Of a stretch of DNA of 64,000 nt, positions 1,585 to 31,777 are shown piece by piece. Source of the DNA: an uncultured delta proteobacterium (GTDB lineage Bacteria; Desulfobacterota; Desulfobacteria; Desulfobacterales; B30-G6); NCBI GenBank assembly GCA_963823335.1, contig CAWGLD010000005.1, positions 224,001 to 288,000 on the forward strand, given 5' to 3'. The translations under genes were made by a program, and so were the position numbers. The notes beneath the pieces are model-generated. The model had not been told where the DNA came from, did no database searches, and worked only from the letters and a program-made list of their open reading frames with translations. How positions within the stretch are numbered: the first letter of the stretch is position 1; each line of letters opens with the position of its first letter.

Positions 1585-2373
1585 ATGAAAAAGCAGGATA
1601 ATGGCAAAAATTCAAGCCGGCTGATTTCCCTGGCCGCTTCCATAACTGAAACCCTTTTCGCTTTGGGCTTAGACGACCGAGTGGTTGGCGTAACGGATAC
1701 CTGCGATTACCCTCCCAAAGTTTCGGATCTGCCGAACATCGGCTGCTGGTTCGAACCAAACTTGGAGACGCTTTACAGCCTAAAGCCGGACCTGGTCATT
1801 GGTTTGGAGACCGCCCATAGCGAATTGGCTGTACCGCTGAAACAAGCCGGTATCGGATTGAAGCTGATCAACCCGACAACCGTAGACCAGGCGATTGGAG
1901 TAATCGCCGAACTTGGAAGTTTTCTGGGGGCTGGCGAGGCAGAAATAATAGTGGATAGATTGAACACAAGGCTTAAGGCTTTGGACAACTCTGTTGCCAA
2001 AATACGTCGCTGTGACAGATTAACAACCTGCCGGATTCTTGAATTTGACGCAGGAGAGGTTTACGTGGCCGGCCCTTTGTCTTTCCAATACGACATTATC
2101 AGGCGGGCGGGTGGGATCAATGTCACCTCGGCACTGGTTGAGGCCTACCCGCGTATACTCCTGGAACAGCTTGTCGAACTTGACCCGAGTTTTATTTTTT
2201 ACTGCGGGTACAACCTGGATTACTTGGATAAAATGATGGGGAATCCGACCTGGCGTTCGATGCGTGCTGTTGAAACAGGTCGGGTTTATCGCTTTCCCTG
2301 CGAGTTGACCTGCCGTTTTGGACCCCGTATTGTGGATATGACCGAATTGCTTTATCAAAGATTGTATATCTGA
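1585..2373 (+). CDS. BtuF-like corrinoid-binding protein with no signal peptide
   Basis: RLISLAASITETLFALG, VVGVTDTCDYP, PNLETLYSLKPDLV, RFGPRIVD; paralogous to 33262-34176; start uncertain. Confidence 0.75.
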   Translation: MKKQDNGKNSSRLISLAASITETLFALGLDDRVVGVTDTCDYPPKVSDLPNIGCWFEPNLETLYSLKPDLVIGLETAHSELAVPLKQAGIGLKLINPTTVDQAIGVIAELGSFLGAGEAEIIVDRLNTRLKALDNSVAKIRRCDRLTTCRILEFDAGEVYVAGPLSFQYDIIRRAGGINVTSALVEAYPRILLEQLVELDPSFIFYCGYNLDYLDKMMGNPTWRSMRAVETGRVYRFPCELTCRFGPRIVDMTELLYQRLYI

Positions 2374-2476
2374 AACTGAACCTATTTGGTGTTACCCGAC
2401 AACCCGGATAGTCGTTTATACTTTGATCTGCCAGGCTAAAAAGGGAATATTAGGAAATATACACAAGGAGGGTATT

Positions 2477-2842
2477 ATGACAAAACTCACTGACGAAGCT
2501 AAAAAGGCTATTGGCGAAATTCGCCCATCGTTGGTTGCTACGGCAAGCAGGACAGGAAAACCAAATGTCTCCGCTAAAGGGTCGTTTCGTGTTCTGGATG
2601 ATGAAAACGTTATATTTGCAGACATAGCGTCTCCCCGAACTGTCGCCAACATCAGGGAGAATCCCCAGGTGGCCATTATCTGCTTGGACGCTGCGACGCG
2701 AAAGAGCTGCCGGATTTGGGGGAAGGGCAGTATCCTCACCTCAGGCGAACTCTTCCAACAATTAGCCGCTGAATATGCCAAGAAGAACATGGAAGTGAAA
2801 AATGTGGTAAAAGTGGCTGTGGAGGAGGTTGAGACCTTTTAA
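2477..2842 (+). CDS. Pyridoxamine 5'-phosphate oxidase-like FMN-binding protein
   Basis: AAGGAGG RBS; VATASRTGKPNVSAKGS, RTVANIRENPQVAI motifs. Confidence 0.8.
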   Translation: MTKLTDEAKKAIGEIRPSLVATASRTGKPNVSAKGSFRVLDDENVIFADIASPRTVANIRENPQVAIICLDAATRKSCRIWGKGSILTSGELFQQLAAEYAKKNMEVKNVVKVAVEEVETF

Positions 2843-3649
2843 ATGGCCAGACTGGGGATAATTGCCTGCCAAATCCTTGAGCTTGAGTTAGCCCATCTGC
2901 TTGTCAATGACATCGAGGTATTCGGTATTACCGTACTTGATAACGGTTTTGGCGATGGATTTTTTCGAGCGCTGAAACAGAAAGGGGAGAAAGCACTCAG
3001 GCTCACCGGAGACACGGGGAAGTATCTATCGCTCGAACCAGATCAGCTTGAGGTTGTTGTTCAGATCATGGAGTTAGGCCTGCACACGGTAATCAGAGCC
3101 CTCCGAACAACTGTGATCGATGCAGTGTCGGAGATGAGCACGCACGTGGATGCAATAGTGCTCGGGTATGGTCTGTGTGGGAATGCGCTCGACAATCACC
3201 AAGAGATCATCAGGGATATCGATATCCCCCTATTCATGCCCATGGATGAGGATCATACTGTGGACGACTGTGTCGGGCTTATCATTGGCGGACGCAAGGC
3301 TTATTATGAAGAGCAGTGCAAAATTGCCGGCACTTTTTTTATGAATGCCGGTTTTTCCCGTCATTGGAAGGACCTTTTACAGAAAGCGAATGCGGTTAAG
3401 TTTGATGAGGCGATGTCCAAGCGTATCATGGCGGGATATGAGAGAAGTCTTTTGCTGATCACGCCGGTTCTTTCCGAAGAGGAGATGGCTGCCAACATAG
3501 AAGATTTCAATCAAACATATGGACTGCGGACCGAGGTTCGTAAGGGAACGCTGGAGATTCTCGAGAGAACGTTGGTCAGGGGAAAGAATTTCGTATTGAA
3601 AAAAGGCGATAACCAGCATACTGATCGCGAAAAAAGAGCGAAAACTTAG
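2843..3649 (+). CDS. DUF1638 family protein (corrinoid methyltransferase-associated)
   Basis: IIACQILE, ELGLH, LGYGLCGNAL, DDCVGLIIGG motifs; starts directly after the upstream stop. Confidence 0.8.
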   Translation: MARLGIIACQILELELAHLLVNDIEVFGITVLDNGFGDGFFRALKQKGEKALRLTGDTGKYLSLEPDQLEVVVQIMELGLHTVIRALRTTVIDAVSEMSTHVDAIVLGYGLCGNALDNHQEIIRDIDIPLFMPMDEDHTVDDCVGLIIGGRKAYYEEQCKIAGTFFMNAGFSRHWKDLLQKANAVKFDEAMSKRIMAGYERSLLLITPVLSEEEMAANIEDFNQTYGLRTEVRKGTLEILERTLVRGKNFVLKKGDNQHTDREKRAKT

Positions 3650-3722
3650 ATTGATCCGCAACAGCGAGCGCTTTTGCGCTGATTGTTCTACAAACCGGGT
3701 GCTGAGCACGCGTTTCTTCAAT
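3650..3722 (-). repeat. Degenerate REP-like family B copy
   Basis: Ends ATTGATCCGCAACAGCGAGCGC and TTTCTTCAAT match 55715-55833. Confidence 0.55.
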
Positions 3723-3829: not shown

Positions 3830-4180
3830 TTAAAAATTAAAAACCTTTCCCTCAGCAATCAAATCGATTAGGTGAGGTGCGCCGTCCAGCAGCATATTGG
3901 AAAAAAACTTGGCCTCGTCCACCTGACGAGCGTTTGCGCACGGCGGTCAGACACCTATGGGAACTTCATTTTCGACCAAATAGGGTAAGTAATCATCGGG
4001 GCAGTCACCGGTAACGCTCTTTTCTTTGAAGTCGCGGGTGTTATCGGCCCACTTGACGCCATCCTCGATCAGGAAGATATTTACATTGTGCCCCTTTTCA
4101 TGGGTAAATTTTGCGAATTGAAAACATCTTGTGGCCAGATTGACATCATTCTTGCTGAGCGTGTATACAAAATTTGCCAT
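3830..4180 (-). CDS. DsrE-family selenoprotein (U-P-P-C), 116 aa
   Basis: GAGGAGG RBS; GHNVNIFLIEDGV DsrE motif; UGA at 3949-3947 reads through to PPCANARQVDEAKFFSNMLLDGAPHLIDLIAEGKVFNF*; SECIS-like hairpin 3930-3914. Confidence 0.9.
3914..3930 (-). promoter_or_regulatory. SECIS-like hairpin (DsrE)
   Basis: CUCGUC-AGGUG-GACGAG, 6-bp stem; loop starts 22 nt after UGA. Confidence 0.8.
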
Positions 4181-4265: not shown

Positions 4266-4778
4266 TCAAAGTTTCTGTTGACGGATCCCTGAGTAAACAG
4301 CTTTGCAGATTTCCGAAATACCTCCCTTTAGACCATCAGGGTTTTTGAATCCCTCGGTTCTTTTCAGGCTTTCAATATAGCCCTCTGCGGTTAAAAAAGA
4401 TTTGAGTCCATGCTCATCCGGCTCATCCGGTTTGATTTGGAACACCCAGCCCTCACCATATGGATCCCGTGATATGAGGGGCACATTCAGTTTTGAACTG
4501 TGGTTGAAATGGATGTGTCCGGAAAGAGGGGCATCAATATATTGGATTTTTCCGGTGATGCAAAAAATGACTGTTTGGCCCCTGGGGACGTGTTGCCCAT
4601 CCGATACAAGCCAGTCCAGATCGTTGATGCCCCCGGCCAGAACCAGGGAGGGTTCCGTGAGCCCGAAGACGATGAATTCTTGATTCGATTTGGCCCATAA
4701 TCCCTGCTTCCCAAAATAGCCTCGATCGCCCGGGACGCTTACACGTTTTCCCAAAAATTTTTCAATGACAGCCATCAA
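4266..4778 (-). CDS. GcvH-like (lipoyl-carrier fold) protein with C-terminal extension
   Basis: GLT, TGKIQYIDAPLSG, ISRDPYGEGWVFQIK match H-protein; extra tail GGISEICKAVY. Confidence 0.75.
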   Translation of the reverse strand: MMAVIEKFLGKRVSVPGDRGYFGKQGLWAKSNQEFIVFGLTEPSLVLAGGINDLDWLVSDGQHVPRGQTVIFCITGKIQYIDAPLSGHIHFNHSSKLNVPLISRDPYGEGWVFQIKPDEPDEHGLKSFLTAEGYIESLKRTEGFKNPDGLKGGISEICKAVYSGIRQQKL

Positions 4779-5010
4779 ATCCTCCTAAACCCATGACACT
4801 AAAATCTTTCATGGTGCTAGTTGATCATTAATGTCCTGTGTTGTTATCAGAAGATTATGTGTTGTAGAAAATCGTTTTACAAGCATTATTTTATAGTAAG
4901 AAGGAAGAAACCTCGAAACTGAAAATGCCACGAAAAGAGTATTGATATCTTGAAAAGACCATTGTAACAATACGCATCTTATTTTCATTGTGGCTGAAGG
5001 TGTTTTCAGG

Positions 5011-5961
5011 ATGAGTAAAATCCGGCGATATATTTATCAAACCCAGGGTGTCTGTCCCCCGGAAATTCATTTCCAGGTAAAGGACGCCATTCTTGAAAGT
5101 GTTCGTTTTGTTGGTGGAGGTTGCCCAGGGAATGCCCAACTTGTAGCGCGTCTGCTGGAGAGGAGGCCTATTGCCGAGGTGTTGCCGATCCTAAACGGGA
5201 TCGAGTGCAGCAAAGGAACATCATGCCCGGACCAGTTGTCAGAGGCAATAAGAAGGATGCAGCGCGGAGATCTCCGGCCGACTTCTTCCTTTCGTGTGGA
5301 GCAAGACTTGTCCTCAGAAAAAATGATCGGTCTCATCGGTGACCTAAACGGTGATCACCGGGTACTGCAACAGTTGATCGGATCAATGGCGGCATGTGGC
5401 GTTGAAGCGATTTTTTGCGCCGGTAACCTGACCGGTCCGGAAAAGGCAGATCGAAAGCTGATCAAGGAGATCGACGAAAAGGGTCTTCGGGCCATTACGG
5501 GAGACAGGGACTGGACGTATGCATGTGAAATGGAAGCGGCGAAGTTTCCGTTCATAGACAATAAAACTAGGGATTTTCTCGTCCGCCTACCTCAGGTGAT
5601 CAGCTTTCGCATAGGGGACAGAAATGGCGTGTTGTTTTTCGGCGATTATCTCCAAAGCATGTCGGGATATTCTGATTTTGAACCGTACGCACTGGAAATC
5701 AATATGGTTTGCGGCTTAACGGATTTCATGCGGGACGAAAGCGTATTCCCGGCACTGGAGGCCATGACCCCGCAGTTTCGAGCGGATATCATCGTATTCA
5801 GCCAAACCGGAAGATGGGGACATTGGCACGTGGCTGGCAAAGATTTTATCGGTCTGGGGCCCGCTGTCGGTATGGACGGCATGGCATGGGCGAGCCTGGA
5901 AATCAAATCCGGGGAGTTGAAATTTTCTAAAATAGTCACCAGTAACGCAGGCGGAGTCTAA
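5011..5961 (+). CDS. TSCPD (TIGR03905-like) domain fused to degenerate metallophosphoesterase domain
   Basis: TQGVC..GGGCPGN..CSKGTSCPDQL, then IGDLNGD, CAGNL, TGDRD (calcineurin-like pattern with altered ligands). Confidence 0.75.
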   Translation: MSKIRRYIYQTQGVCPPEIHFQVKDAILESVRFVGGGCPGNAQLVARLLERRPIAEVLPILNGIECSKGTSCPDQLSEAIRRMQRGDLRPTSSFRVEQDLSSEKMIGLIGDLNGDHRVLQQLIGSMAACGVEAIFCAGNLTGPEKADRKLIKEIDEKGLRAITGDRDWTYACEMEAAKFPFIDNKTRDFLVRLPQVISFRIGDRNGVLFFGDYLQSMSGYSDFEPYALEINMVCGLTDFMRDESVFPALEAMTPQFRADIIVFSQTGRWGHWHVAGKDFIGLGPAVGMDGMAWASLEIKSGELKFSKIVTSNAGGV

Positions 5962-5962: not shown

Positions 5963-6271
5963 ATGGTAGAACTTGTTCTTGTTGATGTGCTGCTAACCGA
6001 TTTCAATCAATGAATCGCCTGTGTCTATATGGCAGAATCGGTAAAGGTTTTACCGGAAGATATCAAGGCGATTATCGACGTTTATGAGTGGGATATGCGT
6101 ACACGTGAGGGTGTACAGCGCTTTAAAGAACTGAAAGCCAAATCCTTGCCGAGTGTCGCCCTGGACGGGAAACTGGTCTGGGAGTCCATTATTCCCATGC
6201 AGGAAGAAATCATTGCCAAAATTCAGGATCTTTACCGCCAAAAGAGTCAAGGAGTTTTAGATGCATCTTGA
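5963..6271 (+). CDS. Thioredoxin-fold selenoprotein (U-I-A-C), 102 aa
   Basis: ATG 5963 with GGAG RBS; MVELVLVDVLLTDFNQ-UGA(6011-6013)-IACVYMAES aligns with QCAACGYMMES of 21079; SECIS-like hairpin 6039-6055. Confidence 0.9.
6039..6055 (+). promoter_or_regulatory. SECIS-like hairpin
   Basis: CGGUAAA-GGU-UUUACCG, perfect 7-bp stem; loop starts 32 nt after UGA. Confidence 0.75.
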
Positions 6272-7241
6272 AGATGTGAATATAGAGGGGTTTAAATCAT
6301 TTTCCGAAGAAACCAACATGAGCTTCCAGCCGGGAATTGGTGTGATTATCGGCAATAACGGTGTGGGGAAGTCAAACATTCTGGACGCGATCGTGTGGGC
6401 GATGGGGGACAATGATCTGAATCGTATTCGCTGTTATGAGCAGGATGAGCTGTTTTTTGCAGGGAGTAAAGATTATCCGCCGGCATCAAGTATACGTGTA
6501 GAACTGAACCTGAAAGAGAGTCAGGAAAAGGACGCTGTTGGAATCAGGTTGGCGCGCGAAATGAACAAAGAGGGCCGTAATCGGTATTATATACAGGAAA
6601 AATCGTGTGATTGGGGCCTGTACAAACAGAATATTGATCGATACCATCTGGCTCATGCACTGAAAACAATTATTCGTCAGGAACACATCAACGACCTGCT
6701 TCGGCTAGATCCCCTGGAACGGGTTCAGTCGATTGGTGAACTGTTAGACAAGAAAGAGGACAATGAGGTGATTGTCCATTTACAGCAGAAAGTCGATCCC
6801 ATTTTCAAACGGTATATGTCCTATCTCATGCCCTCGGCCCATGTGGCCCTTCTCACACCGGAGTTTGACGGGAAGTTTGGAATGGATGTTGAAGTGATGC
6901 TGTCCGGCAACCGCGTGCGTCGTGTGCACCAGCTTTCAGGTGGTGAAAAAGCCGTAACCAGCCTGGCAATTAAGCTGGCCCTGTTTCGCGGGCTTGAAAG
7001 CCCCTTTTATCTGCTCGATGAAGTGGAACCCTCCCTTGACTACACCAACCACAAGTCCATGCAGGCTTTTTTAAAGGACGTTGCTTCCGAGAAACAACTG
7101 ATTATGATTACCCACCTACGCAGCACCATGGAGTTGGCCAACACACTTCACGGGGTACGCACCCGCTGGGACGGATCTTCATTCATGAAGTTCTATTTTG
7201 TTATGGAAGAAAGACTTTTAAGACTCTACAAGTGTTGCTAG
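6261..7241 (+). CDS. Miniature SMC-family ABC ATPase (head domains only), C-terminal CC
   Basis: GFKSF, Walker A GNNGVGKSN, IIRQ Q-loop, LSGGEK signature, LLDEVE Walker B, ITH H-loop; 326 aa, no hinge or long coiled coil. Confidence 0.8.
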   Translation: MHLEDVNIEGFKSFSEETNMSFQPGIGVIIGNNGVGKSNILDAIVWAMGDNDLNRIRCYEQDELFFAGSKDYPPASSIRVELNLKESQEKDAVGIRLAREMNKEGRNRYYIQEKSCDWGLYKQNIDRYHLAHALKTIIRQEHINDLLRLDPLERVQSIGELLDKKEDNEVIVHLQQKVDPIFKRYMSYLMPSAHVALLTPEFDGKFGMDVEVMLSGNRVRRVHQLSGGEKAVTSLAIKLALFRGLESPFYLLDEVEPSLDYTNHKSMQAFLKDVASEKQLIMITHLRSTMELANTLHGVRTRWDGSSFMKFYFVMEERLLRLYKCC

Positions 7242-7361: not shown

Positions 7362-8300
7362 ATGCTAACGGAAAAAATCCTCAAGGGGGATATAAAAGCT
7401 GCTGCGCGGTTGATGCGGGATATTGAAGACGACATTCCGGAAACGCACCATGAGCTCAAGCGCTTGTTAGCACATACCGGAGGCGCCCACATCATCGGTC
7501 TGACCGGTGCACCTGGCACAGGCAAATCCACGTTGATAGACAGCATGATCCACCTTCTGCGGAAGGAGGGAAAAAGCGTCGGTATTTTGGCCATCGATCC
7601 CACAAGCCCTTTGTCCGGCGGGGCCATCCTGGGCGATCGTGTGCGCATGCAAAGACATGCCGAGGATAAAAGCGTGTTCATCAAGAGTATTGCCACCCGG
7701 GGTCAATTAGGTGGCCTCGCGCGATCTGCCTTTGGTATCGTTTCGGTCCTGGATGCCATGGGCAAGGATGTAATCCTTGTCGAAACCGTTGGTGTCGGCC
7801 AGGATGAAGTGGATGTCATGCGCCTGGCCCACACCACAATCGTGGTTGTCACGTCGGAAATGGGTGACGGTATTCAGGCTATAAAATCCGGCATATTGGA
7901 GATTGGCGATATCTTTGTTCTCAACAAGGCCGACCAGATGGGCTCGGATACAACACCGAATAAAATCAAGATGATGCTCAACATGCGACAACTCCGGAAA
8001 GGTGCCTGGAATCCTCCGGTTGTGCAGACCATTGCTATTCGTGGTCAAGGTGTCGATGAGCTGCTGCGGCAGGCGCAAAAGCATCTTGTTTTATTAAAGA
8101 CCCAAGGACTGGATCAATTCCGAAAACAAAAGGCGCTTGCCGAACTCACGACCCACTTAAAAACTATTCTGGTTGAGCGTGCCTTATCGACCTTGGAACT
8201 CAAAAATGAGTGGCAAACGATAATTGACGGTATCGTCAAGGGTGAAATCGATCCCTGCAGTGCCGCAGAAGAACTTGTATCTGAACTATTGAAAAAATAA
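7362..8300 (+). CDS. meaB: MeaB/ArgK-family GTPase
   Basis: GAPGTGKST, AIDPTSPLSGGAILGDRVRM, ETVGVGQDE, NKAD. Confidence 0.9.
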   Translation: MLTEKILKGDIKAAARLMRDIEDDIPETHHELKRLLAHTGGAHIIGLTGAPGTGKSTLIDSMIHLLRKEGKSVGILAIDPTSPLSGGAILGDRVRMQRHAEDKSVFIKSIATRGQLGGLARSAFGIVSVLDAMGKDVILVETVGVGQDEVDVMRLAHTTIVVVTSEMGDGIQAIKSGILEIGDIFVLNKADQMGSDTTPNKIKMMLNMRQLRKGAWNPPVVQTIAIRGQGVDELLRQAQKHLVLLKTQGLDQFRKQKALAELTTHLKTILVERALSTLELKNEWQTIIDGIVKGEIDPCSAAEELVSELLKK

Positions 8301-9364: not shown

Positions 9365-9478
9365 ATTGATTTCACCTTCCCGATAGTTACACTGCTTTTA
9401 AAATGGTGTCAATTTTGTTATGGTATCACTGTTTGATTTACCGCAGCGGTATGTAAGATATGATTGGAGGTCGGGCGA

Positions 9479-10030: not shown

Positions 10031-10633
10031 ATGGCAATAGACGGAAATAAGATCATCCATGCGGTCATGGAAGGCAGCCGAATACGAGAGGCAAAAGGGA
10101 TTATCCCTCTTTTCGGTGTTTACCTCTCCATTTTATCGGTGGGATACTATAATAAGCTCAGTTTTGACTTCGAGCGTAGGATGGGTGATACAAACGCTGT
10201 CGAGGCCCGATCATTATTGACCAGGGCGGCCCAGGAGTGTGGTTACGCTACATTTCAGGGTATACGAAATTCGTGGGAATGGGATGAAATCATTAAACCC
10301 ATGATTGAATCCGAGAAAGACCAGGTCGAAGGATTTATTTCCGTAGCGGTCGCATTCGGGTGGGGGGATCTTGAAGTCAGGGAACTCATACCCAATGAGA
10401 AGCTCATCATTCGTGCGACTGAGTCTTATGAAGCCGGCGGCTATCTCAATGATTATGGTACAGCCGTCTCCAGCAAATGCTATATGCTTCGTGGTGTAGC
10501 GGGAGCTTTTATGGACCTTCTTTATGGGGACGCATATCCTGACGGCTGTTTTACATTTATGGCAGAGGAGCGGTTCTGCCGCGCAAAGGGAGATTCATAC
10601 TGTGAATTCATTGTTCGCAGATCATCTCATTAA
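10031..10633 (+). CDS. V4R-domain protein
   Basis: FGWG, SYEA, CYMLRGVAGA, ERFCRAKGDSYCEF. Confidence 0.8.
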   Translation: MAIDGNKIIHAVMEGSRIREAKGIIPLFGVYLSILSVGYYNKLSFDFERRMGDTNAVEARSLLTRAAQECGYATFQGIRNSWEWDEIIKPMIESEKDQVEGFISVAVAFGWGDLEVRELIPNEKLIIRATESYEAGGYLNDYGTAVSSKCYMLRGVAGAFMDLLYGDAYPDGCFTFMAEERFCRAKGDSYCEFIVRRSSH

Positions 10634-10640
10634 TATCACC

Positions 10641-24291: not shown

Positions 24292-24316
24292 AATAGTCAT
24301 AAGAGGAGGCAGCCGA

Positions 24317-25462
24317 GTGAAAGCACCGAAACCATTGACGCCAAACTCACCGGTCAAACTGATATTTACCGGTGGATTTCTAGGAACGGGCAAAACCACA
24401 GCCCTTGCAGTATTGGCAAGAGAACTCATCGGTCAGGGTAAACGGGTCGGAATTATAACCAACGACCAAAGCGAAAACCTGGCGGATACGATCATTGTCA
24501 AGCAGTTACTCGGCGAGTTGGGTGTGCCGGTAGAGGAGGTTGTTGAGGGTTGTTTCTGCTGCAAATTCGATGAGCTTATCGATCAGATGGAGAAAATTCT
24601 CGTACACAAACCGGATGTCCTGATGGGTGAACCTGTGGGGAGTTGTACCGATTTTGTCGCGGCGGTTGCCAACCCCATAAAGATTCATTACAGGGATGCT
24701 TTCAGATTCGCACCATTTTCAACCATGGTAGACCCTGTTCGGGTTGGGGAATTTCTGATGGAGGACACCCAGACGACTTTTCCAGAGGAAGTGTCCTATC
24801 TTTTTCGCAAGCAGCTGGAGGAAGCGGACCTGATTGTGCTGAACAAGATCGACCAGTTATCCGATCCGGAAAGAGAGCGGCTTGTGGACGTTCTCAAGAA
24901 AAACTATCCTAAAAAGGAAGTGATGCCTGTGTCGGCAAAATACGGAAACGGTATGTCCGAATGGCTCGATGTCTTGCTTTCCGGAAGCCCCGGTGCGGAC
25001 ACGGTTTTGCATGAAATCGACTACGATCGTTATGCCAGAGCCGAGGCAGTGCTGGGATGGCTCAATGCTGCCGTAAAAATTACCGCCGACCGGTCGTTCG
25101 ATTCCGCAGTATGTTTGCGGGATCTGGCAGTAAAGTTAAGAGATGCCTTCCGGGAGATAAATGCCGGTATCGGCCATATAAAAATTGTCATGACCAGTGC
25201 CGGAAAATCCATGTGGGTCAATCTTACCCACCTGGCCGCCGAACCGATGCTCAGCGATAAACAGCTGGGAGATATCCCCGGGGGCAGTCTCATTGTCAAC
25301 GCCAGGGTTCAGATCGTTCCCGAGGTACTGGAAACCATCGTGCGCAGCGCCATTGAAGAGACATCCGTTTCACAAGGCTTTCGATGGGAAATCATCGACC
25401 TGCAATGCTTCAGCCCGGCATATCCTAACCCGCCTTACCTGGTTCGTGAAGAAAGCGTCTAA
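24317..25462 (+). CDS. COG0523-like GTPase
   Basis: GAGGAGG RBS before GTG; GGFLGTGKTT, TNDQ, GCFCC, EPVGSC, NKID. Confidence 0.85.
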   Translation: MKAPKPLTPNSPVKLIFTGGFLGTGKTTALAVLARELIGQGKRVGIITNDQSENLADTIIVKQLLGELGVPVEEVVEGCFCCKFDELIDQMEKILVHKPDVLMGEPVGSCTDFVAAVANPIKIHYRDAFRFAPFSTMVDPVRVGEFLMEDTQTTFPEEVSYLFRKQLEEADLIVLNKIDQLSDPERERLVDVLKKNYPKKEVMPVSAKYGNGMSEWLDVLLSGSPGADTVLHEIDYDRYARAEAVLGWLNAAVKITADRSFDSAVCLRDLAVKLRDAFREINAGIGHIKIVMTSAGKSMWVNLTHLAAEPMLSDKQLGDIPGGSLIVNARVQIVPEVLETIVRSAIEETSVSQGFRWEIIDLQCFSPAYPNPPYLVREESV

Positions 25463-25496: not shown

Positions 25497-25790
25497 ATGA
25501 AAGAGATAGAAAAAATCCATCTCGAAGTACTGCACGAAGGTGCGCATTGAATCCCCTGCGAATACATGACCAGGGTGGTCGAATCTGTGGCGCCGGATTT
25601 TGGTGAGCGTTTGCAATGGGAAAAAGTCGTGACCAAAGAAATGAAAGGTGCCTTGAGGTACGGAGAATTATCAAAAAGCATCGGGCGCCCGGCGCCTGTT
25701 CCCTCTATCTTTATCAATGGAAAACTGGTTTTTGAACAGACGCCGAGCACTGAGGATCTTGCGGGGTTCCTGGAAAAACTGGTTGTTTGA
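25497..25790 (+). CDS. Thioredoxin-fold selenoprotein (U-I-P-C), 97 aa
   Basis: AAGGA RBS; MKEIEKIHLEVLHEGAH-UGA(25548-25550)-IPCEYM..APVPSIFINGKLVF aligns with CLPCFYM..APVPSLFIDGELVF of 28170; SECIS-like hairpin. Confidence 0.9.
25567..25581 (+). promoter_or_regulatory. SECIS-like hairpin
   Basis: UGACCA-GGG-UGGUCG; loop starts 22 nt after UGA. Confidence 0.7.
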
Positions 25791-25810
25791 TGCCAAAAGG
25801 AGATATTTGT

Positions 25811-26056
25811 GTGATCCGGATTGAAGTTATCGGTTTAGACCCCCCTTGCAGGAAATGCAACGAGCTGTTCGCCAACGTAAAACAGGCACTGGAGGAAATG
25901 GGGTTCGAAGCCGAAGTCTCAAAAAAATGGACCCTGTCCCAAGAAATTCGAACTGCATACGGCCTGCTGCTCAGCCCGGCACTGGCAATTGAAGGCGTGG
26001 TGGTTTTCCAGGGTAAGGTGTTCAAACCGGAACGTATTAAGGACCTTTTACGCTGA
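25811..26056 (+). CDS. Small thioredoxin-family protein
   Basis: AAGGAG RBS before GTG; IEVIGLDPPCRKC, SPALAIEG. Confidence 0.8.
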   Translation: MIRIEVIGLDPPCRKCNELFANVKQALEEMGFEAEVSKKWTLSQEIRTAYGLLLSPALAIEGVVVFQGKVFKPERIKDLLR

Positions 26057-26467: not shown

Positions 26468-27967
26468 TCATGAATCCAAATCGAGGAGTTCGAGTGCAGC
26501 GTCGGTTGGAGACATTCGACCCTCTTTTACGGCGCCGGTCAGTTTCAGAACCTTGGTTTTAGATCGTTTGTAAAACCGCTCTTTTAAACCTTCTTCCACA
26601 AGCGACCACATCCAATTTACGGATTGCCGGCGTCTTTTCTGTGAAAACTCACCCGATGCTTCCATTCTGGATCGGTAGTCCGAAATGGCCTGCCATATGT
26701 CGATGATGCCGTCCATGTTTTTTGAACTGCAGGTGAGAACCGGTACTTTCCATGCCGGGGACTCCTGTTTGACGATGCTCAGTGCGGATTCATAAATTTT
26801 TTTTGCTTCCCTGGCTTTTTCAATGTTGTCCCCATCGGCCTTGTTGATGACGATGGCATCCGCCAGTTCCAATATGCCTTTCTTGATCCCTTGAAGTTCG
26901 TCTCCTGCACCGGTGATCATCAACATCAGAAAAAAATCGACCATTGATGCCACATGTGATTCCGACTGACCGATACCCACGGTTTCCACCAGCAAGATTT
27001 CATATCCTGCAGCCTCGCAGATGACCATACTTTCTTTGGTTTTTTTTGCGATGCCGCCTAAAGTGCCGCCGGAGGCAGAGGGGCGGATAAATGCGTTCGG
27101 ATGGCCCGAGAGCCGTTTCATTCGGGTTTTGTCTCCTAGAACACTACCTCCGGTTTTCGAACTGCTGGGATCTACCGCTAGAACCGCCACACGATGCCCC
27201 ATATCGGCGAGCATTGTCCCGAAACTTTCTATAAATGTACTTTTACCTGCACCTGGAACGCCTGATATGCCGATGCGTAAAGCTTTACCCGATAAAAGCA
27301 GCAGTTGTTCGATAAGTTGGTCGGCTACCTGGCGATGTCCGGCCCGAGTGTCTTCAATGAGGGTTATGACCTTGGCGATAACCGCCCTGTCCCCGGCAAC
27401 GACGCCATCGATACATTGTCTCAGCTCAGGACGGGTTTGTTTTCTTTCCTCTAAATGGTAGAGTAATCGAGATAACCCCGATACTATATCATGACCAATA
27501 TCCAGGACTTCGTCGAAGCCGAATTCCTGATGTTTGTTTTCGACTTCCTCAAAGGCCTGCTTCCAGGCGACATTTAAAATTTTGCCACCCGATGCAACAG
27601 AAACAGCTTCCACCAGTCGGGTGACGGATGATTCCGATAGTTTGTAATCGAACGGAAACAGGACAGCATGGACATCGTTCTCAACGGCAGCTCGGGCTGT
27701 TTGTCCATGGGGAAGCCCTCCGGGATGGATATCCACGTCAAACCCCCACTGGGAAAAGGCGGTGGGAACGAGATTGTCAATACGGTTCGCGCTATTTGAT
27801 ACAATGCCACAAAGAAGAATTCTTGGCCGGCGCCCCATCCTTTGTTCGAAAAGGTCCGTTCTCCGGTTGAGAGTATGAGAGATGGTGTTGTCCAGAAGAA
27901 TGCTTTTAAAGCGTGCGAACAGGTTTCGGTTCCCAGGTCGCGTTTTATTTGCTTGGATTTGGCGCAT
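26468..27967 (-). CDS. meaB: Fusion of degenerate mutase-type B12-binding domain and MeaB GTPase
   Basis: GRRPRILL..GFDVDI..ARAAVENDVH without DxHxxG; then GVPGAGKST, DPSS..GGSVLGDKTRM, ETVGIGQSE, NKAD. Confidence 0.85.
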   Translation of the reverse strand: MRQIQANKTRPGNRNLFARFKSILLDNTISHTLNRRTDLFEQRMGRRPRILLCGIVSNSANRIDNLVPTAFSQWGFDVDIHPGGLPHGQTARAAVENDVHAVLFPFDYKLSESSVTRLVEAVSVASGGKILNVAWKQAFEEVENKHQEFGFDEVLDIGHDIVSGLSRLLYHLEERKQTRPELRQCIDGVVAGDRAVIAKVITLIEDTRAGHRQVADQLIEQLLLLSGKALRIGISGVPGAGKSTFIESFGTMLADMGHRVAVLAVDPSSSKTGGSVLGDKTRMKRLSGHPNAFIRPSASGGTLGGIAKKTKESMVICEAAGYEILLVETVGIGQSESHVASMVDFFLMLMITGAGDELQGIKKGILELADAIVINKADGDNIEKAREAKKIYESALSIVKQESPAWKVPVLTCSSKNMDGIIDIWQAISDYRSRMEASGEFSQKRRRQSVNWMWSLVEEGLKERFYKRSKTKVLKLTGAVKEGRMSPTDAALELLDLDS

Positions 27968-28169: not shown

Positions 28170-28508
28170 ATGGGAAACGGAAATAAAATTCTACTGGAAG
28201 TGATGTACAAGGCAAGTTATTGCCTGCCCTGTTTCTATATGGATGAAACCGTACTCGAAATTCTCCCGCAATATGCAGATCAGGTGGAGTATCGTCGGGT
28301 GGAATTCATGAAGGGAAGTGGAAAGAAACGCTTTTTCGAGTTGTCTTACGCACTTTTCGGAAAGGAAAACGTCCACAAATATGCCCGTGTGGCACCTGTC
28401 CCCTCACTGTTTATCGATGGTGAACTGGTTTTCGATGCCATTCCGCCCATGTTCGAACTGGAAGAGGCGATTCTTGAGGCATTGGAAAAAAGGGGAATTG
28501 ATACTTGA
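28170..28508 (+). CDS. Thioredoxin-fold protein (C-L-P-C)
   Basis: YCLPCFYM, APVPSLFIDG; Cys paralog of 25497. Confidence 0.82.
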   Translation: MGNGNKILLEVMYKASYCLPCFYMDETVLEILPQYADQVEYRRVEFMKGSGKKRFFELSYALFGKENVHKYARVAPVPSLFIDGELVFDAIPPMFELEEAILEALEKRGIDT

Positions 28509-28512
28509 AATT

Positions 28513-29031
28513 TTATTTTTCGATGCCGACGCGTGCCTTTACACCGCTCTGATAATAGTGCTTACGGGCTTTCATCTGGGTCACCGTATCTGCATTTTCG
28601 ATTACGCGAGGTGACGCATAGCGCCCGGTGATGATCAATTCCAGAGAATGGGGTTTGTTGATAATTAATCCCAGGAGATCGTTTGCGGCAATTAATCCGA
28701 GTCTGACGGCCACGGTGATTTCATCCAAGACCATCATGTTATATTTGTTTTCAGCCATGATGGTCCTAACCCGTTTTAACCCGATCTGGGCCGCGAGAAT
28801 ATCTTCGGGTTTGGGGTTCCTGTCGGTAAACGTTCCGAGACCGTATTGCTCTACCGTTATTTGGTCGCTGAGTCTTCTGAACGCTTTGATTTCACTATAC
28901 TCCCCTTTTTTTACAAACTGTGCGAAAAATATCTTGAAGCCTGAGCCTGCAGCCCTTATGGTCAGACCTATGGCTGCTGTTGTTTTCCCCTTGCCATCAC
29001 CTGTGAGAACATGTACATAGCCCTTAGACAT
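28513..29031 (-). CDS. cobO: Cob(I)alamin adenosyltransferase CobO/BtuR
   Basis: TGDGKGKTTAAIG, QFVK, VLDE, ITGR, KHYY..G..GIE. Confidence 0.9.
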   Translation of the reverse strand: MSKGYVHVLTGDGKGKTTAAIGLTIRAAGSGFKIFFAQFVKKGEYSEIKAFRRLSDQITVEQYGLGTFTDRNPKPEDILAAQIGLKRVRTIMAENKYNMMVLDEITVAVRLGLIAANDLLGLIINKPHSLELIITGRYASPRVIENADTVTQMKARKHYYQSGVKARVGIEK

Positions 29032-30487: not shown

Positions 30488-31128
30488 TCAAAAATGTTTG
30501 GGTGCTGGGTGCGGGAAAATTTGGTCTTAAAGCGGTTGAGCGGGTCAAACAGATGCACCCGGAGGTGGATTTAACCGTTATTGATATAATAGAGCATCCC
30601 GGGTCGATGCTTTCAGCCCATGGCGTGGTGTATGTTCGCAGAGACGGGATCGAATTTCTCGATAAGAAGCTGTTAGAAACCGGAGGACCGGATTGGATTA
30701 TTCCGGCCATTCCGGTTCATGTAGCCTGTGAGTGGATAAAACGCAGGCTGTCCTCGATCCGTGCTGTTCAGAACATGAATCTGCCCGAACGGTTAGCAGA
30801 CCTGCTCCCCAACACCTTGCAGGGAACACACGGGGAATTGTACAGCAGCATGGCCGATTTTTTATGTCCGGACGACTGTATCGAACCCTATGGCATTTGT
30901 ACAATTACAAATGAGAAAAGGGCTTATCGGCTATACGATTTGCTGTCATCGATTCAGCTCGAGCCCTACAAAACAGTGGTTGTCAAAAGTCGGCAGATAT
31001 GTGCCGGTGTCGGGGGGTATCGGCCGGCTGACTTAATCGGCACCCTGGAAGATATCCGGCGGTATGACGCACCCATATTGTTGAGCACATCCTGTAAATG
31101 CCATGCGGTAGTAAGTGCTTTTCAGTAG
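30484..31128 (+). CDS. Hypothetical Rossmann-fold, Cys-rich protein
   Basis: VLGAGKFG; CPDDCIEP..C; STSCKCH. Confidence 0.65.
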   Translation: MIKNVWVLGAGKFGLKAVERVKQMHPEVDLTVIDIIEHPGSMLSAHGVVYVRRDGIEFLDKKLLETGGPDWIIPAIPVHVACEWIKRRLSSIRAVQNMNLPERLADLLPNTLQGTHGELYSSMADFLCPDDCIEPYGICTITNEKRAYRLYDLLSSIQLEPYKTVVVKSRQICAGVGGYRPADLIGTLEDIRRYDAPILLSTSCKCHAVVSAFQ

Positions 31129-31261
31129 ACCCCATAGTTGCATAAACAACATGGCAAAGTATAGATAATAAGCTGTTATTATATACAATACCGTTGCGAT
31201 AGCGCCATTCTTTTGCAACACTGGGGTAGATTGTCCGGTCCAGGACATCTGACCTGGATAT

Positions 31262-31777
31262 CTATTTTTCGATACCCTTCCTTGCCGGAACACCTTTCTG
31301 GTAATAGTGCTTTATCTCTATCATCTCGGTAACAAGATCGGCTGCCTCCATGACGACAGGTGCCGCCCCCCTTCCCGTGATCACCAGCTCAATTTCATTG
31401 GGTTTGGCGGCAATAAGATCGAGAAGACGCTGGACGTCGAAAAGCCCGCAGGCGGTTGCCACGTTGCCCTCCTCGATGATGATTAGGTCGTATTTGCGGG
31501 AGAGAAGGACACGTTCTATACGCTCTAGACCGGCCTGCGCAGCATCGACCTCATCCTGGGGTGGTTTGTCCTTGATAAAATGACCAAGACCATACTGTTC
31601 GACACTAATGAGATCGGAAAATTTGGCAAGCGTTTTTATCTCGCTGTAATCACCCTTTTTCAGAAACTGGGCGATGAATACTTTCAGGTCAGCCCCGGCG
31701 GCGCGTATGGCTAAACCTATCGCTGCTGTGGTTTTCCCTTTACCGTTTCCCGTGTATATCTGTACAAATCCCTTCAT
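31262..31777 (-). CDS. cobO: Cob(I)alamin adenosyltransferase CobO/BtuR, second copy
   Basis: TGNGKGKTTAAIG, QFLK, ITGR, KHYYQKG; ATGA overlap with upstream gene. Confidence 0.9.
   Translation of the reverse strand: MKGFVQIYTGNGKGKTTAAIGLAIRAAGADLKVFIAQFLKKGDYSEIKTLAKFSDLISVEQYGLGHFIKDKPPQDEVDAAQAGLERIERVLLSRKYDLIIIEEGNVATACGLFDVQRLLDLIAAKPNEIELVITGRGAAPVVMEAADLVTEMIEIKHYYQKGVPARKGIEK

Follow-up and report, generated by a model that had tools for sequence, protein, structure and literature searches.

The soluble coenzyme M methyltransferases MtaA, MtbA and MtsA, together with the solved MtaA of Methanosarcina mazei (4AY7/4AY8), are among the closest known systems to the gene cluster described here. 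The URO-D TIM-barrel fold of MtaA is common to both MtaA-like proteins encoded in the window (the whole stretch of DNA analysed, 64 kb), which lie alongside genes for a corrinoid protein and an activase, and one of the two (gene 14756; genes are named by their first coordinate) retains the HxC...C motif. The second, a predicted selenocysteine (Sec) enzyme, differs from MtaA in two ligand residues, Phe substituting for the zinc-binding His and Sec for the distal Cys ('FFICGD' aligned with 'LHICGN' and 'APGUD' with 'APGCG'), in belonging to a separate clade and in its coupling to a thioredoxin (Trx)-like CxxC protein; in the NCBIfam scan both window proteins stay under the curated thresholds for TIGR01463 and PRK06252, and the host is bacterial. 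Coenzyme M is not known to us from bacteria of this kind. Type 1 mlp clusters (Kountz and Balskus, bioRxiv 2023, PMC10418091) are, like the window cluster, found in anaerobes and linked to selenium, and, with several MtaA-like genes next to corrinoid-protein and activase genes, have been proposed to act on methyl-sulfur or methyl-selenium compounds, the substrate class also proposed here. As far as the accessible text of that paper goes, they are without a tetrahydrofolate methyltransferase, are almost all of the His-Cys-Cys type described there as the zinc sphere of S-methyltransferases of this superfamily, and come mostly from Firmicutes, whereas the window cluster has MtrH, one Phe-Cys-Sec enzyme and an attached Trx relay; that text mentions neither a Sec-containing Mlp nor Desulfobacterota.

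The mec cassette, compared by its description in the accessible part of bioRxiv 10.1101/2021.08.30.458270, likewise combines a sensor kinase and regulator with MtaA/CmuA-type and MtrH-type proteins, a corrinoid protein, RACo and proteins of unknown function, but it has a PocR-domain kinase and an antiporter (MecJ), and neither selenoproteins nor Trx, CobW, DsrE or GcvH genes are described for it. Among known selenoproteins, a DsrE-like family with a UxxC motif, shared by the window's DsrE-family protein, appears in the accessible parts of PMC1976440, PMC2398784 and PMC13188914. The selenoprotein operons SAO and Tso (PMC13188914, accessible part) also gather several selenoprotein genes in one specialised pathway, with organometallic or soft-atom hints; the window cluster is instead centred on corrinoid methyltransferases, and none of the 38 window proteins scanned matched the SAO and Tso family models.

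All gene classes named in the earlier note on this DNA were recovered with Pfam and NCBIfam (Table 1): MtrH, two URO-D/MtaA-like proteins, a B12-binding corrinoid protein, RACo and DUF1638, as well as V4R proteins, a PAS histidine kinase, a LuxR-type regulator, a Trx reductase (TrxR)-like flavoprotein, DsrE and a GcvH-related protein. Its count of six Trx-fold proteins (starts at 5963, 21079, 22041, 25497, 25787 and 28170) also held. The island encodes three CobW-type and two MeaB-type G3E GTPases and two CobO adenosyltransferases; these, with DUF6951, DUF2284 and the TSCPD protein, had received little stress before. The two V4R-type proteins are paralogous (E 6e-11), the GcvH-related protein retains the Lys matching the lipoyl-Lys of H protein (alignment to 1ONL), and the 21603 protein is, from its motifs, a possible zinc ribbon. 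The top PDB matches of the DUF6951 model were IscU chains (E 0.03-0.3, none at E<=0.001), a weak lead towards an IscU-like fold. No tRNA genes and no selA, selB, selC or selD were seen within the 64-kb window.

Table 1. Coordinates of the cluster and adjoining genes in the window, with predicted functions
Feature	Coordinates	Strand	Basis or remark
BtuF/TroA-like binding protein (Peripla_BP_2)	1549..2373	+	Pfam; NCBIfam
PNPOx-like flavoprotein	2423..2842	+	Pfam
DUF1638 protein	2843..3649	+	Pfam, 120 bits
DsrE-like selenoprotein, U-P-P-C	3830..4180	-	Sec codon 3949-3947
SECIS-like hairpin of DsrE-like gene, 6-bp stem, loop AGGUG	3914..3930	-	Hairpin analysis
GcvH-related protein (NF045810)	4266..4778	-	NCBIfam 248.7 bits, cutoff 150
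TSCPD-domain protein, metallophosphoesterase-like C-terminal part	4990..5961	+	Pfam; NCBIfam TIGR03905
Trx-like selenoprotein, Q-U-x-A-C type	5963..6271	+	Sec codon 6011-6013
SECIS-like hairpin CGGUAAA-GGU-UUUACCG	6038..6056	+	Compensatory A-U to C-G changes in relatives
SMC_N/ABC-type ATPase	6261..7241	+	Pfam; recurs with preceding two genes (synteny)
MeaB-type G3E GTPase	7362..8300	+	Pfam; NCBIfam
CobW/COG0523-type GTPase, GCICC motif	8318..9364	-	Pfam; motif
Two V4R-type small-molecule sensor proteins	9464-9997 and 10031-10633	+	Pfam V4R under gathering score
PAS histidine kinase (HisKA_3) and LuxR-type response regulator	10524..13512	+	Pfam; upstream of operon
MtrH-family methyl-corrinoid:pterin (tetrahydrofolate) methyltransferase	13754..14710	+	Pfam; PRK00979 286.2 bits (cutoff 287); MtgA-like
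Canonical MtaA-like methyltransferase, HxC...C (His-Cys-Cys)	14756..15808	+	Pfam/NCBIfam; HxC clade
Corrinoid protein (B12-binding_2 + B12-binding, DxHxxG)	15881..16540	+	Pfam; NCBIfam
RACo-type reductive activator of corrinoid proteins	16674..18734	+	Pfam
DUF6951 Cys-rich protein	18758..19156	+	Pfam; AF2 pLDDT 82
DUF2284 predicted metal-binding protein	19104..19742	+	Pfam
Sec-containing MtaA-fold (URO-D family) enzyme	20017..21051	+	Sec codon 20950-20952; active-site motifs F-I-C, P-G-U-D
SECIS-like hairpin AUGUUCC-GGU-GGAACAU	20966..20982	+	Codons +5 to +9 free of synonymous change
Trx-like CxxC protein (Q-C-A-A-C), proposed partner of Sec enzyme	21079..21468	+	Kept downstream; fused to URO-D in relatives
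Small protein, two CxxC pairs	21603..21905	+	Sequence motifs
MTH895/ArsE-family Trx_3 protein	22041..22286	+	Pfam; NCBIfam
CobW-type GTPase without CxCC motif	22290..23324	+	Pfam; motif
TrxR-like flavoprotein, CSIC redox motif	23368..24291	+	Pfam; NCBIfam
CobW-type GTPase, GCFCC motif	24230..25462	+	Pfam; motif
HUIPC-motif Trx-like selenoprotein	25497..25790	+	Sec codon 25548-25550; NF047660 151.8 bits, cutoff 105
SECIS-like hairpin of HUIPC gene, 6-bp stem, loop GGG	25567..25581	+	Hairpin analysis
Second MTH895/ArsE-family Trx_3 protein	25787..26056	+	Pfam; NCBIfam
B12-binding domain fused to MeaB GTPase	26468..27967	-	Pfam; NCBIfam
Cys paralogue (C-L-P-C) of HUIPC family	28170..28508	+	Directly upstream of HUIPC selenoprotein gene in relatives
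ATP:corrinoid adenosyltransferase (CobO), first copy	28513..29031	-	Pfam; NCBIfam
ATP:corrinoid adenosyltransferase (CobO), second copy	31262..31813	-	Pfam; NCBIfam

The order MtrH, MtaA-like, corrinoid protein, RACo, DUF6951, DUF2284, Sec-MtaA-like, Trx-like, CobW, TrxR-like is kept. Across 80 related Desulfobacterota loci, counting for each gene only those whose contig extends to its position, the 21079-type Trx-like gene follows the Sec enzyme in 73/75, and DUF6951 (66/69), the 22290-type CobW (58/61), the TrxR-like flavoprotein (48/54), RACo (51/58), the corrinoid protein (47/53), the HxC MtaA-like gene (44/49), MtrH (31/46), the 21603-type two-CxxC protein (48/71) and an upstream LuxR-type regulator (33/44) recur with it. 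The accessory genes accompany the methyltransferases elsewhere too, a point on which the earlier note had made its reading depend. MtrH, RACo and the corrinoid protein had no match in the examined stretch of some loci (for example L074, L077 and L078; in L074 the sole MtaA-like match is set apart upstream), and therefore the two modules may not form one obligate pathway. The cluster is common to many sulfate-reducing bacteria and is of the corrinoid methyl-transfer type, as had been claimed, with four predicted selenoproteins.

Four in-frame TGAs, at 3949-3947 (minus strand), 6011, 20950 and 25548, had been put forward as Sec codons at Cys-equivalent positions, each followed by a GG-loop hairpin; all four are present, and homologues or paralogues have Cys at each of these positions. 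They lie in the motifs GV-U-PPC (DsrE-like), NQ-U-IAC (Trx-like), APG-U-DMP (URO-D/MtaA-like) and AH-U-IPC (second Trx-like), and the hairpins that follow have, in the same order, stems of 6, 8, 7 and 6 bp, loops AGGUG, GGU, GGU and GGG, and loop starts 25, 35, 23 and 25 nt past the U of UGA. Hairpins of this type whose stem has 6 bp or more follow 4/4 candidates and 74/2476 TGA trinucleotides of the window (3.0%; 229/2476, or 9.2%, if 5 bp suffice). A window-wide scan for TGA plus hairpin inside an ORF returned ten matches, the four candidates among them; each of the remaining six overlaps a recognised gene, on its opposite strand or in another frame.

That the UGAs are ordinary stops, the genes truncated or split and the hairpins coincidental, is barely credible. 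Public gene calls do end or start at them: 116 of the 120 listed MtaA-like entries measure 307-311 aa, three DsrE-like database forms (77 aa) stop just ahead of the Sec position, and those of the 5963 protein (76-80 aa) are N-truncated or render TGA as Trp. Yet in-frame protein sequence past each UGA is conserved over 19 to 80 genomes, including the 32-residue tail of the MtaA-like protein in the 80 related loci, and full-length Cys forms exist, with Cys and the tail in all four MtaA-like entries of 341-344 aa and Cys in five 116-aa DsrE-like homologues. The codon itself is TGA in 79/80 and TGC in 1/80 loci for the MtaA-like gene, TGA in 19/19 for the Q-U-x-A-C type, TGA in 17 and TGC in 5 for the HUIPC type, and TGA in the DsrE-like orthologue of locus L023. 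Synonymous-site constraint falls exactly on the MtaA-like hairpin (codons +5 to +9, without any synonymous change over 81 sequences, against 0.5-1.9 bits of variation in the codons on either side), and Cys forms of the HUIPC protein are without the hairpin. The Cys pairing, the frame kept on both sides and the conserved hairpins support Sec codons, and on such sequence evidence the four proteins appear to be genuine selenoproteins. Genes 5963, 21079 and 28170 encode relatives of the HUIPC protein that fall below its NF047660 cutoff (41.3, 33 and 73 bits against 105), and the Q-U-x-A-C protein is a separate Sec-containing Trx-like type. A HUIPC-motif thioredoxin-like selenoprotein was reportedly described by Haft and Tolstoy in 2025.

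The closest solved relative of the Sec enzyme is M. mazei MtaA, 4AY7 (sequence E 1.4e-20; TM-score 0.88 for a model of pLDDT 96.5), with which the 14756 protein aligns end to end (E 2.5e-48). FastTree placed 14 of 15 FxC..C rows, the window's Sec enzyme included, in one group (support 91) that holds all four Trx-fused rows retained in the tree; gene 14756 falls in a separate HxC clade (support 99). A C-terminal CxxCxYM domain of Trx-like type, homologous to the 21079 gene, was found in 7/16 FxC..C and 0/32 HxC..C proteins of a set of 74 full-length representatives, and fusion is confined to the His-less FxC…C/U clade; 9/16 FxC..C representatives are without it, so the link to a Trx partner is not universal, and one fusion (P0156) retains neither the Cys residues of its URO-D part nor the CxxC. 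A natural fusion (P0132), a homologue ~35% identical to the window's enzyme and used in place of the window's own pair, was divided into its two domains and modelled as a complex, which scored 0.78 (best control, 0.02), a mark attained by 58/80 solved complexes and 2/110 mismatched pairs, counts that are rough because our own alignment went in. Runs shared at least 95% of contacts, with a partner pLDDT of at least 84, and the interface comprised the FxC cysteine (232-234), residue 315 beside PGC312D and C381-A-P of the CxxC. The model thus places the CxxC of the fusion in the active-site funnel; a tethered domain may dock there for reasons besides catalysis.

We propose a conserved Desulfobacterota corrinoid methyl-transfer cluster with four selenoproteins in which the Sec enzyme runs a Trx-coupled redox cycle, a whole to which we give an even chance. 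The MtrH-family enzyme would exchange methyl groups between a pterin (tetrahydrofolate being the likeliest) and the corrinoid protein, the His-Cys-Cys enzyme would exchange them with a thiol- or selenol-type compound, and RACo would reactivate the cobalt centre. The Cys/Sec pair of the second MtaA-fold enzyme would hold or attack S or Se, the soft atom of whichever compound donates or accepts the methyl group, and in every cycle the downstream Trx-like CxxC would enter the funnel and reduce or otherwise complete that pair. Reducing equivalents would probably pass through the TrxR-like flavoprotein and a relay made up of the Trx_3 proteins, both Sec Trx-like proteins, the Sec DsrE-like protein and the TSCPD and GcvH-related proteins, while metal or corrinoid would be loaded by the CobW and MeaB GTPases. 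The substrate is most likely a methyl-sulfur or methyl-selenium compound. Of the thiol/persulfide handling suggested earlier for the leaving group, a thiol/selenol relay is supported by the Trx fusions and the complex model, while the persulfide reading is unproven.

The Trx-like, TrxR-like and CobW proteins might instead serve maintenance only, re-reducing an oxidised site and reinserting metal outside the catalytic cycle much as RACo repairs cobalt, with the Cys/Sec site binding zinc as in MtaA and a carboxylate or the substrate replacing His. Three CobW-type GTPases adjoin Trx_3 genes, two with a CxCC metal motif, the oxidised zinc enzyme MetE (1XR2), of related fold, is among the fold matches, and a nearly invariant D-E pair past the FxC strand could provide a ligand. 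Repair should, however, serve the HxC clade equally, in which the fused domain is absent, and the modelled CxxC lies inside the substrate funnel; we regard this reading as rather doubtful. Improbable, to a greater degree, is direct metal(loid) chemistry, in which the Sec/Cys pair binds As, Se, Te or Hg, a methyl group is added (from methyl-tetrahydrofolate through the corrinoid to the atom) or removed, and the resulting enzyme disulfide or selenenylsulfide is reduced by the Trx-like partner. The disulfide cascade of ArsM resembles such a scheme. The operon's DUF2284 protein resembles, below cutoffs, the C-terminal domain of MbdU and ArsM/DUF2284 selenoproteins, the Trx_3 proteins belong to a family that NCBI names MTH895/ArsE, the N-terminal half of an ArsM/DUF2284 selenoprotein (341 bits, model positions 1-202) adjoins the Sec-DsrE gene and the cluster in L023, and a MIP channel fused to a Trx_3 domain adjoins it in L074. 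These last two are single-locus associations (each 1/80), the window has no ars or mer genes, and the sensors are of V4R/PAS rather than ArsR/MerR type. In favour of this reading, Sec variants of HgcA, HgcB and MerB-like proteins also appear in the accessible part of a 2026 review (PMC13188914).

Catabolism of halomethanes or dichloromethane of the CmuAB or mec type, although the gene classes shared with the mec cassette speak for it, is very unlikely. In CmuA the methyltransferase and corrinoid domains are fused, whereas they lie on separate proteins here, the cluster contains no chloride or proton transporter, and with a halide as leaving group neither a Cys/Sec pair nor a Trx relay would have an evident function. 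The kinase, moreover, has PAS domains beside V4R proteins where that of mec has PocR, and close Mec homologues (>35% identity) are, in the accessible part of bioRxiv 10.1101/2021.08.30.458270, confined to a few Peptococcaceae and related metagenomes.

The novelty claimed for the combination is narrower than the earlier note held, since two of the Sec families, DsrE-like and HUIPC thioredoxin-like, are already catalogued, NCBIfam has a model dedicated to the GcvH-related protein and comparable MtaA-like clusters have been proposed (PMC10418091, accessible text). What stands is that the Sec MtaA/URO-D enzyme and the Q-U-x-A-C Trx-like type have no dedicated NCBIfam model and are absent from accessible published selenoprotein lists; a Sec-containing MtaA-type methyltransferase has apparently not yet been listed as a selenoprotein. 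The main new point is that this enzyme belongs to a His-less clade (FxC…C/U), the sole clade with a fused Trx CxxC domain of the downstream type, and the fusions and the complex model directly link a single Trx-like protein with the active site of a Sec-containing, His-less MtaA-fold enzyme.

The window has a G+C content of 48.5% and contains no N. Reading TGA as selenocysteine (U) across open reading frame (ORF) pieces yields four joined proteins, and a local hairpin lies 3' of each of the four in-frame UGAs (see table). When all TGAs on both strands were screened for a hairpin at the right distance whose stem has 6 bp or more and no more than one G-U pair and whose 3-7-nt loop contains GG, 74 of the 2476 window TGAs (3.0%) qualified versus four of the four candidates; with a 5-bp stem the background was 229 of 2476 (9.2%). 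The earlier note's claim of four in-frame UGAs with hairpins is thus correct and lies far beyond chance. A window-wide scan for TGA plus hairpin inside ORFs returned ten matches, comprising the four candidates and six others that were rejected as Sec sites because each runs antisense to a recognised gene or is not in frame with one. When the 65 nt 3' of each UGA were folded by minimum free energy (MFE), the Q-U-x-A-C thioredoxin (Trx)-like gene alone reached significance (z -4.46), the other three giving z +1.77, -0.82 and +0.13; this test alone is therefore insufficient for a Sec claim, and the argument rests on the local-hairpin control and comparative data. An Rfam gathering search of the window matched no SECIS family, a cobalamin riboswitch being the sole match. 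A fifth Sec codon, at a TGA upstream of the gene at 21603, was rejected for its unconvincing N-terminal extension, as were stops in the DUF6951 matches of six related loci, which are terminal stops or a frameshift. A further TGA with a hairpin, at 45 nt upstream of an ORF and in frame with it (last rows of the table but one), is probably due to chance, since that ORF overlaps other ORFs.

Features of the window, with the number of loci carrying a gene among those whose contig reaches far enough to be counted
Feature	Position (strand)	Details	Loci carrying/loci reaching
DsrE-like protein	3830-4180 (-)	UGA 3949-3947; 116 residues, GV-U-PPC; stem 6 bp, loop AGGUG	
GcvH-related protein	4266-4778		
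Trx-like protein, Q-U-x-A-C type	5963 (+)	UGA 6011; 102 residues, NQ-U-IAC; stem 8 bp, loop GGU	
MeaB GTPase	7362-8300 (+)		
Kinase	10524		
MtrH-family protein	13754		31/46
MtaA-like protein, HxC type	14756		44/49
Corrinoid protein	15881		47/53
RACo activase	16674		51/58
DUF6951 protein	18758-19156 (+)		66/69
DUF2284 protein			53/71
Sec enzyme, URO-D/MtaA-like	20017-21051 (+)	UGA 20950; 344 residues from ATG at 20017, APG-U-DMP; stem 7 bp, loop GGU	
Trx-like CxxC partner	21079		73/75
Trx_3 protein			58/67
CobW protein			58/61
TrxR-like protein	23368-24291 (+)		48/54
Trx-like protein, HUIPC type	25497 (+)	UGA 25548; 97 residues, AH-U-IPC; stem 6 bp, loop GGG	
MeaB GTPase fusion	26468-27967 (-)	methylmalonyl-CoA-mutase-type B12-binding domain	
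CobO adenosyltransferase	28513-29031 (-)		
CobO adenosyltransferase	31262-31813 (-)		
U32-family protein	31774-33000 (-)		
BtuFCD-like ABC transporter	33262-35977 (+)	Peripla_BP_2, FecCD, ABC_tran	
Cobalamin riboswitch	36079-36306 (+)	RF00174, 85.7 bits	
DUF4465 gene and TonB-dependent receptor	36464-39377		
TGA with hairpin	40019 (+)	stem 6 bp, loop GGT	
ORF downstream of this TGA	40064-40675		
folD	50950		

Comparative data came from a scan of one genome per species, which gave 220 relatives of the Sec enzyme gene, the best 80 of the 220 being kept as loci. All 80 belong to Desulfobacterota, mostly as MAGs, and they include Desulfatitalea alkaliphila M08but, the Olavius Delta 1 symbiont and a Desulfococcaceae isolate; the best identity among them is 88%, the source genome not being in the set. 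The Sec codon is TGA in 79 of the 80 loci and TGC in one, and the tail is kept in all. The hairpin codons GAT GTT CCG GTG GAA have zero synonymous variation in 81 sequences (window plus loci), while neighbouring codons of conserved residues in the same sequences vary by 0.5-1.9 bits; such synonymous constraint is what a functional RNA element within a coding sequence would be expected to leave. Among the 120 database matches listed, 116 are 307-311 aa long, and the two of the short kind that were aligned end at ...APG; the remaining four (341-344 aa) show Cys in place of U, followed by the same 32-residue tail. Homologues ending at the UGA, which the earlier note had named as counter-evidence, do exist as these short entries, but the Cys forms and a tail conserved in 80 of 80 loci speak against taking them as complete. 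The sole TGC form, at 7580 of L061 (a Desulfonema sp. MAG), has an almost intact hairpin, with the stem kept and a GUU loop, and therefore suggests a recent Sec-to-Cys change; on that contig no homologue of the Trx-like partner follows the MtaA-like gene.

In the locus and homologue alignments of the Sec candidate genes, the frame is conserved on both sides of the UGA. The Q-U-x-A-C gene has TGA in 19 of 19 loci within a conserved context, TDFxQ-U-xACVYMAESV, and its hairpin (CGGUAAA-GGY-UUUACCG) is likewise maintained, in some loci through compensatory replacement of A-U by C-G pairs. Its public entries include N-terminal truncations of 76-80 aa; the eight full-length entries aligned have W at the Sec position in seven (P0392, P0396, P0400, P0402, P0415, P0429 and P0443), probably through gene callers reading TGA as Trp, and R in one (P0403). 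No Cys orthologue of this type occurs in the 19 loci or the eight full-length entries, its only Cys equivalents being the paralogous Trx-like partner and the domains fused to URO-D proteins. Orthologues of the HUIPC gene carry TGA (n = 17) or TGC (n = 5), and all five TGC forms lack the hairpin. For the DsrE-like protein, Cys stands at the U position in five of five full-length (116-aa) homologues aligned, three 77-aa database forms stop just before that position, and the one orthologue among the loci (L023, a Desulfatiglandales MAG) has TGA. The UGAs accordingly fall at Cys-equivalent positions, as had been claimed, on the evidence of Cys homologues for the MtaA-like, DsrE-like and HUIPC proteins and of paralogues or fused domains for the Q-U-x-A-C protein. 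That the UGAs are ordinary stops, a reading with which the short database entries would agree and which the conserved tails and hairpin codons oppose, is almost certainly wrong.

The window has no tRNA and, among the proteins scanned, no sel genes. A putative SelD adjoining the cluster in L006 (D. alkaliphila) was rejected, the AIR-synthase-like gene being sll0787/methanogenesis-marker-2-like. The Olavius Delta 1 symbiont (L009), which shares the TGA in its MtaA-like gene, is reported to have 57 selenoproteins, SelD included (PMC1976440).

The URO-D TIM-barrel fold of the Sec enzyme is closest to MtaA, and among solved structures M. mazei MtaA matches it best (sequence E 1.4e-20; TM-score 0.88, from an enzyme model with pLDDT 96.5). 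Aligned with MtaA, LHICGN faces FFICGD and APGCG faces APGUD, that is, the Cys of HxC is kept, His is replaced by Phe and the distal Cys, at a metal-ligand position, by Sec; the HxC MtaA-like protein of the window retains His-Cys-Cys. His-Cys-Cys is described as the zinc sphere of S-methyltransferases in this superfamily (PMC10418091), and the exact MtaA residues named here are the presumed ligands. A search of 1.84 billion cluster representatives gave 1455 matches at E<=1e-3, 60 of them at E<=1e-30, and 74 of the best 150 of the 1455 are full length: 32 are HxC..C, 16 are FxC..C and the others are without one or both Cys, among them an LxR..W group that has neither. In a quick FastTree tree of 72 rows (three of the 75, comprising the reference, the 74 representatives and the HxC protein, were dropped for short cores), whose support values are local only, 14 of 15 FxC..C rows form one group (support 91) with the window's enzyme and all four fused rows kept, apart from an HxC clade (support 99) that holds the HxC protein of the window.

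A C-terminal CxxCxYM Trx-like domain is fused to seven of the 16 FxC..C proteins versus none of the 32 HxC..C proteins, and it aligns over its full length with the separate Trx-like partner encoded in the window; Pfam Thioredoxin_3 was found in three of nine proteins scanned. Among individual fusions, P0129 joins URO-D, Trx-like CxxC and Trx_3-like domains, mirroring the window's gene order, and P0156 has lost the URO-D Cys pair and the CxxC together. The window enzyme in full length is available only by reading through its TGA; complex modelling therefore used as its stand-in a natural fusion, P0132, divided into a URO-D (1-336) and a Trx-like (366-458) domain. Three runs scored the pair at 0.78, while the highest of three controls stayed at 0.02; 58 of 80 solved complexes and 2 of 110 mismatched pairs attain that mark, counts that apply only roughly here, as our own alignment was used. 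At least 95% of contacts agree between runs, with partner pLDDT of at least 84, and they link the CxxC loop (376-386, including C381-A-P) with the conserved DPxxSQ segment (195-199), with the FxC cysteine (232-234) and with residue 315, next to PGC312D. With a stand-in of 35% identity, the model supports, short of showing, binding of the Trx-like domain at the URO-D active site; we know of no solved complex of this URO-D/Trx-like kind.

Comparison of 38 window proteins with the 80 loci by tblastn revealed a conserved neighbourhood. V4R proteins, the kinase and a regulator are followed by the core module of MtrH, HxC MtaA-like protein, corrinoid protein and RACo, then by DUF6951, DUF2284, the Sec enzyme and its Trx-like CxxC partner, and then by a small Cys4 protein, Trx_3, CobW and the TrxR-like protein. 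Beyond these, in variable order, come the GcvH-related protein, CobW, Trx_3, TPR, a Cys and Sec HUIPC pair, a trio of TSCPD, Sec-Trx and SMC-like ATPase proteins, and CobO. Accessory genes, the TrxR-like and CobW genes for example, thus co-occur with the methyltransferases elsewhere, as the earlier note expected. In a few deeper-branching loci (L074, L077 and L078) the regulators lie directly 5' of DUF6951 and the Sec enzyme, and the stretch examined has no MtrH, RACo or corrinoid-protein match, so that the Sec module can occur separately from the core module. At least one carrier of the cluster, D. alkaliphila M08but, is cultured.

The surroundings of the window cluster are devoted to corrinoids, with two CobO genes, two MeaB genes (one a B12-binding fusion) and a BtuFCD-like transporter that adjoins the cluster; no mutase large subunit for this adenosylcobalamin set was seen in the window. 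The cobalamin riboswitch lies upstream of the DUF4465 gene and the TonB-dependent receptor, and with this unit the corrinoid island runs past 31777, where the earlier note had ended it. The U32-family gene shares 40 nt with the end of the second CobO gene, and its best models are TrhP (prephenate-dependent tRNA U34 hydroxylase) and UbiU, both below cutoffs. In two other loci, L033 (14865-16767) and L062 (227-2900), the cluster is bordered by genes for a cobalt-type ECF transporter, CbiM/CbiQ(/O).

Among the redox or metal-binding motifs of the cluster are CSIC (TrxR-like protein), CxCC (two of the three CobW proteins) and DxHxxG (corrinoid protein). The TrxR-like protein keeps CSIC while its second dinucleotide-binding motif is degenerate (GSDNAA); judged by these motifs, it may be of a ferredoxin-dependent type that does not use NAD(P)H. 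DUF6951 has conserved C30, C34, C55, C91, H92 and C95, and its model (pLDDT 82) has a weak likeness to IscU/SufE-type scaffolds for sulfur or metal (best E 0.03, TM-score 0.44-0.48), the fold search giving no match at E<=0.001; an ESM Atlas search returned only DUF6951 clusters. We regard the predicted IscU-like fold as a lead only.

Several of the families are already known. The HUIPC protein (motif AHUIPC) matches NF047660, the HUIPC motif thioredoxin-like (seleno)protein, at 151.8 bits (cutoff 105), the Q-U-x-A-C protein reaches 41.3 bits, below that cutoff, and the GcvH-related protein is NF045810 (NCBIfam). The DsrE-like protein matches PF02635 (56.1 bits versus 22.7), and its UPPC motif fits the UxxC of DsrE-like selenoproteins, which published lists have included from the 2000s onwards (PMC1976440, PMC2398784 and a table in a 2026 review, PMC13188914). 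Only general MtaA/CmuA models match the Sec enzyme, under their cutoffs (TIGR01463, 116.8 bits versus 235.4), and the HxC protein also stays below them (TIGR01463, 205 versus 235.4; PRK06252, 233.7 versus 244). The terms MtaA, CmuA, PF01208, TIGR01463, uroporphyrinogen and methylcobal are absent from the text and table of the 2026 review (PMC13188914), and no Sec-containing MtaA/URO-D family is named in the Olavius, GOS, ISME 2016 and deep-Sep papers, as judged by their main texts. Literature searches on MtaA/corrinoid, URO-D/UroD, DUF2284 or HUIPC selenoproteins brought up no description of a Sec-MtaA protein. The HUIPC family was reportedly established by Haft and Tolstoy 2025, whose account may already cover some of the neighbouring genes. 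With main texts as the literature covered, any claim of novelty is provisional. Within that literature the MtaA-fold enzyme that has Sec and lacks His, together with its Trx-like partner, appears undescribed. The DsrE-like and HUIPC proteins, by contrast, belong to catalogued Sec families, which leaves two of the four; the combination is a novel form built from known kinds.

The general interpretation of the earlier note, that the island is a selenium-dependent corrinoid methyl-transfer system, holds. In the mechanism that we propose, MtrH would couple the corrinoid protein to tetrahydrofolate (the window also has a folD gene), the HxC enzyme would handle a thiol- or selenol-type substrate, and the Sec enzyme would act on a soft atom through its Cys/Sec pair, with which the partner's CxxC would exchange. 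The TrxR-like, other Trx-fold, TSCPD, GcvH-related, DsrE-like and possibly IscU-like DUF6951 proteins would form a supply or acceptor chain. More specifically, the His-less Sec enzyme and its partner might be a new kind of corrinoid methyltransferase with a selenenylsulfide/dithiol cycle, acting on a protein-bound thiol, selenol, persulfide or perselenide, or on As, Se, Te or Hg, a proposal that we put forward as speculative and rather improbable in this full form. The cluster resembles type 1 mlp clusters in having at least two MtaA-like genes, a corrinoid protein and a RACo activase; by the published definition the MtaA-like proteins of such clusters fall in the Mlp2 and Mlp3 sequence clusters (PMC10418091), and mlp clusters typically lack a tetrahydrofolate methyltransferase, whereas the window has an MtrH-family gene.

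The same relay of Trx-fold and accessory proteins might be concerned purely with repair or metal insertion, which we consider unlikely though far from negligible. Methylation or demethylation of a metal(loid) is hinted at by the DUF2284 protein in the cluster, by an ArsM/DUF2284 selenoprotein fragment adjoining it in L023 and by a MIP-Trx_3 fusion in L074, and is on balance quite improbable. The L023 ORF (3784-4392, minus strand) is the N-terminal half of an ArsM/DUF2284 double selenoprotein (NF041536, 341 bits), covers only model positions 1-202 and neighbours the Sec-DsrE orthologue, a further URO-D gene and the cluster; in L074, a Syntrophobacteraceae MAG, the gene for the MIP-family channel with a Thioredoxin_3 domain (4549-5760, plus strand) adjoins the cluster. 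Use of halomethanes is very improbable as the function of the cluster; MecA of the mec dichloromethane cassette, a cassette recognised by reciprocal-best-hit orthologues of MecE and MecF, is a PocR-domain sensor kinase, whereas the kinase of the window has PAS domains only.

For the selenium-dependent methyl-transfer system, Sec at a zinc-ligand position of the MtaA fold and a Trx-like domain modelled into the active site together suggest a mechanism not described for corrinoid methyltransferases. If the Sec readings are right, selenoprotein catalogues would gain one or two families, a Sec URO-D/MtaA-type methyltransferase and the Q-U-x-A-C Trx-like protein; the former occurs in no fewer than 220 species-level genomes, from sulfate reducers and bacteria related to them, and is truncated in 116 of the 120 public entries listed. 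Were the metalloid case true, this widespread Desulfobacterota cluster would join HgcAB as a second corrinoid pathway by which organo-metal(loid) compounds are formed or broken down in anoxic sediments. To our knowledge, few genes have been assigned to the turnover of methylated sulfur, selenium or metalloid compounds by sulfate reducers under anoxic conditions, and the cluster is a concrete, testable candidate for this role.
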